Positions 8,634-11,522 of a stretch of 32,755 nucleotides of DNA are shown one piece after another. Every line of letters starts with the position of its first letter. Within the stretch, counting starts at the first letter, position 1. Location: the NCBI GenBank assembly GCA_964464565.1, contig CAYXGK010000002.1:1858-34612 (forward strand). Reading direction: 5' to 3'. Both the position numbers and the translations under genes were made by a program. The notes beneath the pieces were generated by a model. It was not told where the DNA came from. It searched no databases and saw only the letters and a program-made list of their open reading frames with translations. Source of the DNA: an uncultured Muribaculaceae bacterium. Lineage in GTDB: Bacteria; Bacillota_I; Bacilli_A; RF39; UBA660.

Positions 8634-8663
8634 TTGATTATTTTATTAATGTTATGATATAAA
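8634..8663 (+). promoter_or_regulatory. putative promoter of the WXG-like cassette (TTGATT, 18 nt, TGaTATAAA)
   Basis: -35-like ttgatt (8634-8639), an 18-nt spacer, TG (8655-8656) and tataaa (8658-8663), 27 nt upstream of the ATG at 8690. Confidence 0.45.
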
Positions 8664-8689
8664 TAATATTAGGAAGGTAGGAAAATAAT

Positions 8690-9361
8690 ATGAACGATAT
8701 GGTAAATGTGGCTAATTTAGGAAATTTGCATAACTCAGGTTCTGACAAATGCAAAACTATGGCTGATAATGTTACAAAAGAATTTATAACACCAGTTGCT
8801 AGTGCTTACAAAATTTTAGGAGATGATTGGTTTGGATCAGCAGCAGCGAATCATTATCCAAATGTAAAAGTATTACATGATAATATGGTAAGTTTACAAA
8901 ATTTTATAGCAGAACTTGGAGAAAAAATTACAGAAATTGCTGCAACAATGGATGAATTTGATACAAGAGCAGGAGGTACTTCAAGAGGATTAACAAAAAC
9001 TACTATAACAAGATATTCTGATATTTTAACAATAAAAGAAAAATTACCAGAACAAACATTCAGAATGAGCCCAGCATCAATACCTGCAGTAAATTCATTA
9101 AGAACTGTTGTTAATAGTATTGATACATTAGTTGGTCAAGTGGATACTTTATTAGAAGAAGTATTTACAAACTGGACAGCAGGAGGAAATCCTAGTTCAT
9201 TTAGAACATCAATTTCTTCAGCACTAGATAGAATTAAATCAATGAAAAACGAAGCGAATTTGGCAGTTGAAGCAATGGAAGCTGGAGTTAAAGTTATTTC
9301 TTCACTTGGTGCTAATTCAGCAGCAAGCGGAAACGGAAATCGTACTGATATGATAAACTAA
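8690..9361 (+). CDS. WXG-motif helical protein (WXG100/LXG-superfamily-like), 223 aa
   Basis: No signal peptide. 'ILGDDWFGSAAANHY' is a W-x-G turn motif flanked by predicted helices, as in ESAT-6-like proteins. A second W..GG element ('FTNWTAGGNPSSF') lies in the C-terminal half. Ala/Gly/Thr-rich, and visibly less AT-rich than its neighbours. Confidence 0.5.
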   Translation: MNDMVNVANLGNLHNSGSDKCKTMADNVTKEFITPVASAYKILGDDWFGSAAANHYPNVKVLHDNMVSLQNFIAELGEKITEIAATMDEFDTRAGGTSRGLTKTTITRYSDILTIKEKLPEQTFRMSPASIPAVNSLRTVVNSIDTLVGQVDTLLEEVFTNWTAGGNPSSFRTSISSALDRIKSMKNEANLAVEAMEAGVKVISSLGANSAASGNGNRTDMIN

Positions 9362-9384
9362 AATGCATTAAAAATGCATTTTTT
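9360..9384 (+). terminator. intrinsic terminator/attenuator between the WXG-like gene and downstream cassette genes
   Basis: aaaatgcatt (9360-9369), loop aaa, aatgcatttt (9373-9382): a perfect 10-bp stem followed by additional T residues. It overlaps the stop codon at 9359-9361. Confidence 0.55.
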
Positions 9385-9401
9385 CACTTTGAGAGGTGTC
9401 T

Positions 9402-9815
9402 ATGAATTTGGCAGATCAAAATTTAATAAATAGTTCGGAAGTTTTATATTATTTGGAAGATATAAAAAAAAATATGGCAAATTCAACAGAGGGTTTATCC
9501 TCTGCTTTAGTGTTTTTTGATTATGTTAAGTCATCTGCGATGGATAATTTAAAATCTGAAATAGTCTCGCAGATAAAAAAACAAGAAGAATTTATTGCTC
9601 AAATAGAAGATTTAAAAAGAACAATATCTTCAAAAACAAGTGCAATAAATACCGATATAAATAATGCTAAAATAGCAAAAGAAGAAAAAGCAAAAATTGC
9701 AAGAGAAGAAGCAAATAAAAAATTAAAGGAAGAAGCAGTAAGAAAATCAAGTAATCAAGCTTCTTCATCGCAAACAACACAATCAAAATCAAAAAATATA
9801 AATCTAGAATACTAA
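9402..9815 (+). CDS. small helical protein with a K/E/S/Q-rich tail (possible secretion partner or chaperone)
   Basis: I prefer the ATG at 9402 (RBS GAGAGG at 9391-9396) over the GTG at 9396 in the track. About 85 aa is predicted helical, then a low-complexity tail 'KIAKEEKAKIAREEANKKLKEEAVRKSSNQASSSQTTQSKSK'. No signal peptide. Confidence 0.45.
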   Translation: MNLADQNLINSSEVLYYLEDIKKNMANSTEGLSSALVFFDYVKSSAMDNLKSEIVSQIKKQEEFIAQIEDLKRTISSKTSAINTDINNAKIAKEEKAKIAREEANKKLKEEAVRKSSNQASSSQTTQSKSKNINLEY

Positions 9816-9827
9816 ACAAGGAATATT

Positions 9828-11258
9828 ATGATAATTGATTTAGAGGTTTTAAATTCAGTAACTATAGTAGAAGAAGAAAACATTGAAGTTTTAAAGACTT
9901 CAAGTTTTTCTTTTATTAATTGTAAAAATAGTATTGATAATAGAATAAAAAATCCAAATATTTCTTTTAAAATTTCCATGATAGAAAATAATTTTAATAA
10001 GTTAATAAAAACAAATGAAGATACATTAGAATTTAATTCAAAAATACAAAGAGAAGTTGTAGAATTAATTGAAATATTAAAAAAAATTTCTCCACCAACT
10101 TTTAATAAAATAAATTTTCACCTTTATTCGTTAAATATTGAAAAAATAACCGAAAGCTTTTCAAATTATTTGATAGATAAGTATAATGTTTTATCAATTA
10201 ACAATAAAAAAAATATTTATGAAAAACTTATAGTATTTGAAACTGTTAATAATAAAGCTCAGTTCGATATAGTATATTCTAAATTTGTATCAGAAAATTT
10301 AGAATATATGCCTCAATATGCCTATGCTATATATTTAATAAAAAAAGAACTAAGGATTTTAGAAGAGTCTAAAATACAAGATGTATTTCCTGATAAAATT
10401 ATAAATGTTGGATCAACAGATGATAAATCAAAAAGTAGAGTATTAGATTTAAATGTTAATTTGTTATTAGAAATTATAAATAATAATTCAAAATTTAAAA
10501 GCTTTTATAACAAACAAGAACTGCCTCTTGAAATATTAGTTGATTATAATATTTATTTACATGCATTTGATGTACTTTATCATGAAGTAGATGGAATTGC
10601 CCTTGAATTATCTCAAGATGAATTTGAAAGACTTAAAGAACTATCAAAAAAGTATAATCAGGATTTATCAAATTCTTTAGAGGGACAAGTCAATACATTA
10701 AATAGGATTGATGAAAACTTAAAAATAGCTAAATTAATAAAAAATGATAATTTAAATATTTTTTCATCTTGGAATGATGAAAAGAATATAAACAGAATTC
10801 TTTTAGCAATTAATTATATGCCAGAAATTTTAAAAAATAATCTAAGTAATATATATTTTTCAACCGAAGAAGGTATTTTCCCTTATAATGCGTTTGTATT
10901 TTCATATGATAATTTTGTGGCATCTGCAGCTACAATGTATGATTCTAGAGAGGGTATTTATTTTTGGGGTGGTTTGGAAAACGATGACACCAATCATACT
11001 ATAGATATATTGTATCACGAGGCTGCTCATGTACTAGACAATAAAAATAATATATCTTCTGATCAAAATTGGATTGATGCATCAATTGCAGATGGTAATT
11101 ATCCAAGCTCATATGCATCTATGAATGGATTTGAAAATTTTGCAGTATCAGTAGAAAAATATTTTAGTGATTACAAAGCGTTTAAGGATAATTTTCCTAA
11201 TAGAGCAAAATATTTAGATAATTTATTTAATGATCAAGATGTAGTGCTTTTTAAATAA
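9828..11258 (+). CDS. leaderless protein with a C-terminal Zn-metallopeptidase domain (anthrax LF / peptidase M34-like); candidate secreted effector
   Basis: 476 aa with no signal peptide. 'ILYHEAAHVLD' (H397-E398-x-x-H401) plus 'GFENFAVSVEKYFSDY...FPNRAKYLDNLF' (E436). This resembles the HExxH...E-F-F-A-E...P..Y.FL.NL arrangement I recall in PPEP-1/Zmp1 and lethal-factor-like domains. Confidence 0.55.
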   Translation: MIIDLEVLNSVTIVEEENIEVLKTSSFSFINCKNSIDNRIKNPNISFKISMIENNFNKLIKTNEDTLEFNSKIQREVVELIEILKKISPPTFNKINFHLYSLNIEKITESFSNYLIDKYNVLSINNKKNIYEKLIVFETVNNKAQFDIVYSKFVSENLEYMPQYAYAIYLIKKELRILEESKIQDVFPDKIINVGSTDDKSKSRVLDLNVNLLLEIINNNSKFKSFYNKQELPLEILVDYNIYLHAFDVLYHEVDGIALELSQDEFERLKELSKKYNQDLSNSLEGQVNTLNRIDENLKIAKLIKNDNLNIFSSWNDEKNINRILLAINYMPEILKNNLSNIYFSTEEGIFPYNAFVFSYDNFVASAATMYDSREGIYFWGGLENDDTNHTIDILYHEAAHVLDNKNNISSDQNWIDASIADGNYPSSYASMNGFENFAVSVEKYFSDYKAFKDNFPNRAKYLDNLFNDQDVVLFK

Positions 11259-11279
11259 ATATTTACGATAGGAGTTTTT

Positions 11280-11522
11280 ATGAATTATAATTTAGATGGT
11301 AAAAAAAAAGAAAACGAATTAATAAAGCAAAAATACGCAAAAAGAGTTTATGTTAAAACAAAAGAAGGGGCAGATCTTGCGATTAGTTATTTTTTTGATG
11401 AATTTGATAAATACACAACTGAACAAAATGCTAAAAAAATAATTATTAGAGAATTGACATATGAAAGAAACCTTATAAAAGAATCTATATATATTGTAAA
11501 AAATAATTCGAATAATGAATAA
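11280..11522 (+). CDS. small ORF (80 aa), candidate immunity/inhibitor for the upstream metallopeptidase
   Basis: RBS AGGAG, 21 nt after the stop of the metallopeptidase gene, and the last gene before the hisS leader. No motif recognised; the role is assigned by position only. Confidence 0.35.
   Translation: MNYNLDGKKKENELIKQKYAKRVYVKTKEGADLAISYFFDEFDKYTTEQNAKKIIIRELTYERNLIKESIYIVKNNSNNE

Follow-up and report, generated by a model that had tools for sequence, protein, structure and literature searches.

What does the four-gene cassette considered here do for its host? The DNA stretch that was analysed, called the window throughout, comprises 32,755 nucleotides (nt) of contig CAYXGK010000002.1 (32.7 kb of genome) with a GC content of 25%, and the genes of the cassette, labelled (i) to (iv), all lie on its forward strand and encode proteins of 223, 137, 476 and 80 amino acids (aa), respectively (table 1). 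The answer proposed here is that the cassette would encode an effector module belonging to the polymorphic toxin system of an uncultured low-GC Bacillota organism, in which a toxin, (iii), and its immunity protein, (iv), are combined with export by a type VII secretion system (T7SS). We assign a probability of roughly 0.55 to this combined explanation.

The first-pass annotation of this DNA had described four co-directional open reading frames (ORFs) with a W-F-G motif in the first product and HEAAH and ENFA motifs in the third, and all of these features are present where they had been placed. The genes are separated by 40, 12 and 21 nt, each of them is preceded by an AG-rich ribosome-binding site (RBS), and the identical gene order recurs on at least six further metagenome contigs, all from the same species. 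For gene (ii) the ORF finder proposes an alternative GTG start at 9396, which would give 139 aa; the gene callers used on sister contigs choose ATG. In comparison with strain L001, the ratio of nonsynonymous to synonymous substitution rates (dN/dS) is 0.37 for (ii), 0.30 for (iii) and 0.14 for (iv), whereas it is 0.04-0.06 for hisS and hydA, and this purifying selection on (ii)-(iv) indicates that the genes of the cassette are real. No hydrophobic leader or transmembrane segment was found in any of the four proteins (the maximum in a Kyte-Doolittle window of 19 residues is 1.03), which agrees with the earlier statement that (iii) lacks a signal peptide.

The C-terminal part of (iii) is the most informative part of the cassette. 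It had been proposed to be a protease warhead of the ATLF/M34 type, and taken alone (iii) gives no match to Pfam ATLF and weak ones to M90 (E=0.021) and M91 (E=0.052). An exhaustive HMMER search with (iii) against 1.84 billion representatives recovered 41 relatives with lengths of 94-2061 aa, and the region corresponding to residues ~320-470 of (iii) ends 0-7 residues from the C-terminus in all but a few of them (representative matches span residues 161-464, 181-401 and 43-467 of (iii)). In an alignment of 33 warhead sequences H397, E398, H401, E436, A439 and R459 are invariant, and D404, W415, D422, Y429, F438, S441 and P457 are nearly so. The predicted catalytic residues of (iii), which are H397, E398, H401, Y429 and E436, are all intact, as is the ORF in every sampled strain. 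Against the PDB, the warhead profile aligns end to end with the catalytic domain of anthrax lethal factor (LF; E=5e-8), in a stretch that contains the segments of the active site (LF residues 610-770), and it also matches Zmp1/PPEP-1 of C. difficile (E=1.2e-7) and an 'ATLF-like' protein (E=4e-4). In the AlphaFold2 (AF2) model of (iii), residues 181-476 are predicted with confidence, at a predicted local distance difference test (pLDDT) score of 75-97, and the N-terminal fold with low confidence; Foldseek relates this model to LF with a probability of 1.0 and to PPEP-1 with a target-normalised template-modelling score of 0.60-0.63 and a root-mean-square deviation of ~4.5 Å.

Protein (iii) therefore shares with LF and PPEP-1 (MEROPS M34) the fold, the HExxH motif, the downstream Tyr and the Glu ligand in an E-x-F-A-E-like helix, but its score stays below the gathering score of Pfam ATLF, and the domain is equally close to Peptidase_Mx1 and M90. 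The same is seen across the family, in which Peptidase_Mx1 is matched by 19 of the 33 members, M90 by 15 and ATLF by 13; most of these matches are below threshold, and all those to ATLF are (best E=6.8e-5). The earlier proposal thus stands at the level of the superfamily and fails at the Pfam threshold. Since its members match three families mostly below threshold, the warhead is, as judged from sequence, a family of its own among the LF/M34-like gluzincins.

If (iii) is a toxin, the producing cell has to be protected from it, and the first-pass annotation had likened the cassette to LXG loci, in which an immunity gene follows the toxin gene. The loci of the relatives agree with such a role of (iv). 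Homologues of (iv) are located just 3′ of warhead proteins, as a 74-aa protein after P0004, as a 138-aa protein with two repeats after P0030, as the N-terminus of a 299-aa ORF after P0006, and as proteins of 56 and 86 aa after P0017; in BLASTP, (iv) matches the downstream ORFs of P0004, P0030 and P0006 with E-values of 1e-8, 5e-8 and 4e-10, respectively. When the warhead alignment was used for scanning, 14 loci from GTDB and 27 from JGI metagenomes were recovered, with GC contents of 24%-63%, and a (iv)-type domain follows the warhead directly in 24 of these 41 loci (8/14 and 16/27), frequently with an overlap at the stop codon; all in all, the pairing was seen in about 30 unrelated loci. The core of the (iv) family comprises ~55 aa with the consensus ER...TP.GGDYSEI.YFD..G......A...IRE...DG.L..ET and has no match in Pfam or the PDB. 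In the scanned loci the domain was not found after about ten warhead forms that have an N-terminal signal peptide. A (iv)-type gene thus occurs only with leaderless forms, as expected for immunity against a toxin that is active in the bacterial cytoplasm. The short forms with a signal peptide and without an immunity gene (229-302 aa; L019, L021, L022, L034, L036, L041, L046, L052 and L053) are presumably ordinary secreted PPEP-like enzymes. At locus L026 ('uncultured Bacilli', 106-3425) the warhead is found midway along an ORF of 1023 aa and not at its C-terminus, and an immunity-type ORF is still the next gene. That (iii) and (iv) form a toxin-immunity pair within a polymorphic toxin family is well supported, and we hold it to be highly probable. 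Protein (iv) would bind the peptidase of (iii) and inhibit it directly inside the producer, and the target of (iii) would presumably be antibacterial.

Does (iii) stand alone, or is it one member of a larger set of toxins? Two giant ORFs of 1607 and 1176 aa further downstream in the window, which had been missed in the first-pass annotation, carry the N-domain of (iii): residues 1-100 of (iii) align with residues 1-101 of the 1607-aa ORF at 32% identity (BLASTP E=2e-6; phmmer E=2.5e-6). Both giant ORFs are leaderless, and their 5′ sequences of ~2.2 kb, including the upstream leader (from 14333 and 19439), are 98% identical as DNA before the two diverge. Their modules have no match in Pfam, NCBIfam or the PDB. 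The small ORFs that overlap their stops are related neither to (iv) nor to one another and match no family. The C-terminal region of the 1176-aa ORF (21690-23030) recurs inside P0006 (E=3e-7); a Cys...His pair seen by eye in this region (AGACSYAAV ... GGGHAVFITE) suggests a candidate papain-like peptidase.

The modules of these proteins are found in several combinations. The central module of the 1607-aa ORF is related to P0030 (E=3e-13) and to the toxin of locus L039 (E=1e-10), and P0030 itself (1276 aa) joins a (iii)-type N-domain (E=0.01) and the central module of the giant ORF to the C-terminal ~430 residues of (iii), its gene being located 5′ of uvrC-gltX, where by synteny the window has its giant ORFs. 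P0004 combines a similar N-terminus with a (iii)-type C-terminus (BLASTP residues 206-461, E=4e-27), P0017 is a WXG100-like N-terminus (E=3e-4) fused to the warhead, and the other carriers of the warhead comprise Phage_Mu_F, minor-capsid-2, VG15 and VgrG-like proteins as well as unknown ones. A constant N-domain, alternative C-termini and cognate immunity genes, by which polymorphic toxins are recognised, are found in the three window proteins and their relatives. Because the N-domain is common to (iii) and the giants and the modules are recombined on different carriers, (iii) and the giant ORFs are, on this comparative evidence, a polymorphic toxin family of classical architecture (PMC3482391), and it is the giant paralogues that make this reading convincing.

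The same exchange of modules can be read in another way, namely that (iii) is a recombination remnant or a short derivative of a giant toxin, in which loss of a central module of ~600 aa has joined the N-terminal 100 aa to a C-terminal cassette. It and its immunity gene would then be maintained chiefly as a reservoir that permits toxin switching, and (i) and (ii) would be unrelated to it. It is true that (iii) is a short form without the central module that is found in the giant ORF, P0030, P0004, P0006, P0036 and the L039 toxin, that in P0030, whose gene has the position of the giants by synteny, this C-terminal cassette is attached to a carrier of full length, and that (iii) evolves faster than its neighbours. 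We nevertheless consider this explanation very improbable, as (iii) has its own start codon, its own RBS and a complete N-domain, its catalytic residues and its ORF are intact, and its dN/dS is well below 1. To our knowledge, the orphan modules of classical Rhs and contact-dependent inhibition (CDI) systems have no start codon, RBS or complete N-domain of their own.

The polymorphic architecture bears equally on whether the toxin leaves the cell at all. In an intracellular toxin-antitoxin or anti-phage abortive infection module, (iv) would restrain (iii) until infection releases it, and nothing would be exported. Three proteins with one N-domain, different C-termini and swapped modules have the signature of exported polymorphic toxins, the warhead is also present on the VgrG spike and on phage-head MuF proteins, which are carriers that deliver to other cells, and locus L039 ties the family to a secretion ATPase; all three observations speak against such a module. 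It would account for the tight pairing of a toxin and a small inhibitor across a 21-nt gap, for the lack of a secretion signal and for the position of the cassette amid housekeeping genes, and protease-based defence systems exist. We regard it as improbable.

How would a leaderless toxin be exported? According to the literature, T7SS substrates have an N-terminal helical domain and small helical partners in every known case, and divergent T7SS subtypes are numerous in Bacillota (PMC9600955, PMC10730906, PMC11217815). LXG genes of T7SSb typically have two small helical ORFs in front of them and immunity genes behind them, and the cassette has the same order of two helical genes, a leaderless toxin gene and a small gene (PMC9600955). 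Furthermore, LXG loci such as those of S. intermedius TelC and TelD are polymorphic in the same sense, with a shared N-domain and swapped C-termini (PMC9600955, PMC10801868). In its layout (iii) corresponds to this type, being leaderless and having a shared N-domain, a variable C-terminal toxin and an immunity gene downstream, although its N-terminal fold is predicted with low confidence.

The similarity of (i) to WXG100 proteins, which had been suggested from the W-F-G turn, points in the same direction. WXG100 is the top or only match of (i) in Pfam, NCBIfam and the PDB, it is always centred on this turn, and in the PDB an ESAT-6-like protein (E=0.06), whose alignment covers the WxG turn, is the sole match. 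The AF2 model of (i), which has low confidence (pLDDT 56), contains helices at residues 7-48, 57-93, 130-163 and 170-215, arranged as two helix-turn-helix hairpins, the first of which turns at W47-F-G49 and the second at W162-T-A-G165. An internal duplication was considered as the origin of this arrangement and rejected, the two halves having no similarity. On this low-confidence model, protein (i) would have the helix-W-x-G-helix hairpin of WXG100/EsxA proteins, but it is 223 aa long as compared with ~100 aa, its second turn is W-T-A-G and not WxG, and it has neither YxxxD/E nor HxxxD/ExxhxxxH. Protein (i) is a candidate WXG100-like secretion partner or co-substrate and (ii) a candidate second targeting partner with a Lap-like role; both are helical and encoded just upstream of the toxin, and they would interact physically with (iii). 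Upstream of P0006 there is a helical 196-aa protein with an S/N-rich tail, which resembles (ii) in build and has no sequence similarity to it. None of the helper candidates located 5′ of P0004, P0006 and P0036 resembles (i) or (ii) in sequence or matches a Pfam family.

The most direct link between this family and a T7SS is provided by locus L039, which lies on a metagenome contig of 58.7 kb, in a region with 27% GC. Here an EssC/YukB ATPase gene, a gene of YukD/EsaB size, a helical protein gene, a toxin gene with both the central module and the warhead, and a gene of the immunity family follow one another on one strand (table 1). The first gene of the locus, in the position of esxA, encodes a 203-aa protein with the double-length, double-W layout of (i). 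Within 10 kb no EssB- or EsaA-like gene was recognised in L039 (56-15003). A VirD4/TraG-like fragment lies on one side of the locus and DNA methylase and helicase genes lie on the other, and the locus could represent either a minimal subtype of T7SS or a mobile element.

Several results weigh against export by a T7SS and have to be set beside this evidence. First, the window itself offers no machinery: among its ORFs of at least 100 aa there is no match to T7SS core families, including EssC, EsaA and EssB, as had been stated before. Among 55 loci, EssC was found in L039 only, and none lies within 10 kb in L007, L008, L009 or L011. The absence of EssC near the toxin gene is common for LXG toxins too. 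Second, LXG (PF04740) was not detected on full-length (iii) at E<=1, nor on residues 1-250 or 1-119 at E<=10; at this threshold the N-domain of (iii) has no match to any Pfam family, and other T7SS profiles likewise gave nothing on this domain and its relatives; an N-domain profile gave only non-significant coiled coils among solved structures, including LXG and Lap. Third, the scores of (i) remain below the cut-offs, with 18.0 bits for PF06013 (E=0.0036; cut-off 27.3) and 20.4 bits for TIGR03930 (E=4.4e-4; cut-off 44.85), while its N-terminal half alone scores 15.8 bits against WXG100; its second half has no profile match, and Foldseek of its model against the PDB returns generic ferritin-like bundles and no significant fold match. 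Fourth, neither (i) nor (ii) matches DUF3130/TIGR04197 or DUF3958 at E<=1 in Pfam and NCBIfam, and the FxxxD and DxxTxxxGN motifs are absent from both, so that the cassette differs from LXG loci in all of these features; (ii) has no family match in Pfam or NCBIfam, and in the PDB there are only non-significant coiled coils. Fifth, the profile of the (iii) N-domain finds no counterpart in the N-terminus of the L039 toxin, and the similarities of (i) to the 203-aa protein and of (ii) to the 101-aa protein are not significant. Finally, (iii) lacks the central module, unlike all other long carriers of the family, and as phage MuF proteins and VgrG carry the warhead too, its presence is by itself no indicator of a T7SS. 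Of the LXG-like logic that the first-pass annotation had seen in the cassette, the gene order is thus upheld, and a relative of the toxin lies in an EssC locus, whereas LXG, DUF3130 and DUF3958 have no match and WXG100, the best match of (i) in three libraries, stays below threshold.

These points could also mean that the toxin-immunity module is genuine and released in a different manner, for instance by lysis or through a holin, or by an undescribed system peculiar to these reduced low-GC lineages, in which case (i) and (ii) would act as chaperones or regulators or have no relation to the toxin. The lack of machinery in the window and near four of the five family members, the presence of the same warhead on MuF, VgrG and VG15 delivery carriers, the N-domain that matches no known T7SS targeting domain and the sub-threshold scores of (i) would all fit this explanation. 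Yet no holin, lysis or phage gene adjoins the cassette, tblastn searches found no phage or plasmid relatives of it, one family member with its immunity gene is located downstream of EssC and a YukD-sized gene in L039, and a leaderless toxin with a helical N-domain and helical neighbours follows the known T7SS pattern (PMC10730906, PMC11217815). Release of this kind is unlikely in our view. Of the mechanisms available, T7SS-type export by way of a composite helical signal made up of (i), (ii) and the N-domain is the best, and given the locus grammar, the sub-threshold similarity to WXG100 and the single T7SS-linked relative on which it is based, we put its chances at about even.

The T7SS-based mechanism would operate as follows. 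Protein (iii) would be a leaderless toxin that consists of a helical trafficking domain of ~100 aa, a helical pre-toxin region and an LF/PPEP-like zinc endopeptidase. Its N-domain would assemble with (i) and (ii) into a helical-bundle pre-secretion complex analogous to LXG-Lap1-Lap2, which would then be exported by a type VII-type, EssC-driven system encoded elsewhere in the genome; the same (i)/(ii) complex would probably also serve the two giant paralogues, as they carry the same N-domain. A more far-reaching interpretation, which we put forward tentatively and consider rather doubtful, is that the cassette represents an undescribed class of T7SS substrates of uncultured low-GC Bacillota. 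In that class a ~100-aa targeting domain other than LXG would act with a single-chain, double-hairpin WXG-like protein (a fused EsxA/Lap pair, similar to EspB) and a tailed helical partner, an LF/PPEP-like protease would be delivered into rivals, and a new and widespread inhibitor family of ~55 aa would protect also against the MuF and type VI secretion system (T6SS) VgrG versions.

Comparison with known systems defines what is new here. With regard to LXG loci, the first partner of the cassette has double the length (two hairpins in 223 aa), the second has a long charged tail, the N-domain comprises ~100 aa in place of the ~190 aa of LXG, and the G-rich hydrophobic central module of the giants (~400 aa) has not been described for LXG toxins. 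The closest parallel to (i) may be mycobacterial EspB, a single-chain four-helix WXG bundle (PMC11217815), since (i) as modelled would likewise hold two hairpins per chain, although EspB belongs to the T7SSa of Actinomycetota, unlike the host of the cassette. A fused double-WXG protein of Bacillota is not described in the paper on T7SS variants that was searched. An LF-like C-terminal warhead ('Tox-ALFMetallopeptidase') has already been catalogued in polymorphic toxins by Zhang et al. in 2012 (PMC3482391), but it was associated with delivery by Photorhabdus virulence cassettes (PVC) or the type II secretion system (T2SS) and with Imm-SuFu, whereas the warheads considered here are found on T7SS-linked, MuF, VgrG and VG15 carriers and are accompanied by an unannotated immunity protein of ~55 aa. 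MuF toxins of temperate phages have the same pair of warhead and immunity protein in many loci; the cassette differs from them in having no MuF domain, no nearby phage genes and no matches in phage genomes. The S8-PTS system (PMC9424270) was considered as a parallel and rejected, being dependent on a signal peptide. The new elements are therefore the ~100-aa N-domain family, the double-hairpin WxG-like partner, the central module of the giants, and the ~55-aa immunity family with its association with the peptidase across phyla and carriers.

The distribution of the cassette is narrow. In an index of 5.8 billion clusters, (i), (iii) and the carrier module matched the same species only, and a GTDB scan with (iii) gave no matches. 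No relatives of (i) and (ii) outside the species were found in the cluster index and the JGI and plasmid scans, the exhaustive HMMER search having been made with (iii) only. As tblastn searches of plasmids and phages with (i), (iii) and the giant-ORF carrier gave no matches, an origin of the cassette from a phage or plasmid was rejected. L014/L008 (CAZSTI010000010.1, GCA_964609995.1) has a GC content of 24% and the same toxin-uvrC-gltX order as the window, and its 'uncultured Muribaculaceae' label is probably wrong, because this assignment is implausible at such a GC content.

The genomic setting corresponds to what had been reported, with relA, dtd and three [FeFe]-hydrogenase subunit genes on the 5′ side and a T-box leader, hisS and aspS on the 3′ side. 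The score of the hisS T-box is lower than the Rfam gathering score, so a default Rfam scan overlooks it. That the cassette has its own promoter could not be confirmed: a consensus scan found 30 promoter-like sites in the region, compared with 28.9 expected from shuffled sequences, which is no enrichment, and there is no terminator 3′ of the hydrogenase gene. The hairpin located after the stop of gene (i) has a minimum free energy of -7.8 kcal/mol (z=-2.3; 7 of 200 shuffled sequences fold equally well) and is unchanged in five strains, which are too closely related for this to be informative; judged by its sequence, it may be a leaky terminator that raises the expression of (i) over that of (ii)-(iv).

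Gene (i) differs from its neighbours in its evolution. It is 99% identical to positions 1810-2481 of L001, with three nonsynonymous differences and no synonymous ones, whereas its neighbours show synonymous divergence (dS) of 0.05-0.22 in the strain comparison, and the composition of its product is less driven by AT content (the G+A+R+P fraction is 0.23 compared with 0.10-0.14). A recent sweep, recombination or constraint at the nucleotide level could be the cause of this pattern. In L001, aspS (6129-7371, corresponding to 13009-14322 of the window) is broken into ORFs of 107 and 292 aa by either a frameshift or an assembly error; the copy in the window is intact. Further downstream, at 27167-32588, three successive ORFs resemble exported or surface proteins: the first (527 aa) has a leader-like N-terminus, the second (1015 aa) contains DUF5411 and Cys-rich repeats, similar to a 666-aa ORF of L007, and the third (259 aa) has a weak match to the LPXTG anchor. 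This match, the T-box and the relA-dtd...hisS-aspS synteny, which is typical of Bacillota, are the grounds for regarding the uncultured low-GC host as a Gram-positive.

Table 1. Positions of the cassette, its domains and related features in the window and in locus L039.
Sequence	Feature	Position	Strand	Remarks
Window	Candidate promoter and RBS	8634-8689	+	5′ of gene (i); TTGATT-18 nt-TATAAA with RBS AGGAAGGTAGGA; putative, read from sequence
Window	Gene (i)	8690-9361	+	223 aa; ORF; turn motif W47-F-G49
Window	AT-rich hairpin	9361-9390	+	9 bp, AAAATGCAT/ATGCATTTT, with T-run; after gene (i) stop; weak evidence
Window	Gene (ii)	9402-9815	+	137 aa; ORF and called gene; K/E/S-rich low-complexity tail
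Window	Gene (iii)	9828-11258	+	476 aa; ORF; H397-E-A-A-H401, E436-N-F-A439
Window	N-domain of (iii)	9828-10130	+	~100 aa; candidate trafficking domain, non-LXG by sequence; common to both giant ORFs, P0030 and P0004
Window	Pre-toxin helical region of (iii)	10368-10750	+	Residues ~181-308; conserved before warhead in P0003, P0004, P0006 and P0030
Window	C-terminal gluzincin peptidase of (iii)	10755-11258	+	Residues ~310-476; predicted from alignment, profile and Foldseek
Window	Gene (iv)	11280-11522	+	80 aa; ORF; ~55-aa unannotated family; candidate immunity protein/protease inhibitor (BLASTP and locus linkage)
Window	hisS T-box leader	11531-11697		75 bits, E=1e-16; under Rfam gathering score of 93
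Window	Giant toxin 1 (putative)	14394-19217	+	1607 aa; (iii)-type N-domain, central G-rich hydrophobic module, unique C-terminus
Window	Small ORF	19210-19413		67 aa; overlaps stop of giant toxin 1; candidate immunity gene
Window	Giant toxin 2 (putative)	19500-23030	+	1176 aa; ~730 N-terminal residues common with toxin 1; different C-terminus
Window	Small ORF	23027-23578		183 aa; overlaps stop of giant toxin 2; candidate immunity gene
L039	Gene 1	1668-2279		203 aa; W-H-G turn at ~residue 44, second W at ~residue 151; esxA position
L039	Gene 2			EssC/YukB ATPase; E=7e-119 to B. subtilis YukB; FHA-like N-terminus; split at A-run
L039	Gene 3			84 aa; YukD/EsaB size
L039	Gene 4			101 aa; helical
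L039	Gene 5			924-aa toxin; central module E=1e-10 to giant ORF; warhead E=3e-8 to (iii)
L039	Gene 6			66 aa; immunity family, profile E=6e-10

What do these characteristics mean for the biology of the toxin family and its hosts? On the one hand, toxins of T7SSb are recognised almost entirely by LXG, WXG and Lap profiles, and the cassette suggests that gut Bacillota possess effectors that those profiles miss; the double-hairpin WxG proteins, (i) and the 203-aa protein of L039, may be the Bacillota counterpart of the single-chain bundle of the EspB type. On the other hand, the immunity family is found alongside an LF/PPEP-like toxin in several phyla and on at least three platforms, which are T7SS-linked carriers, phage MuF proteins and VgrG. 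The pairing of the warhead with (iv) offers a tractable route to the targets of such proteases inside bacteria and to the inhibition of an M34-type zincin by a protein of 55 residues.

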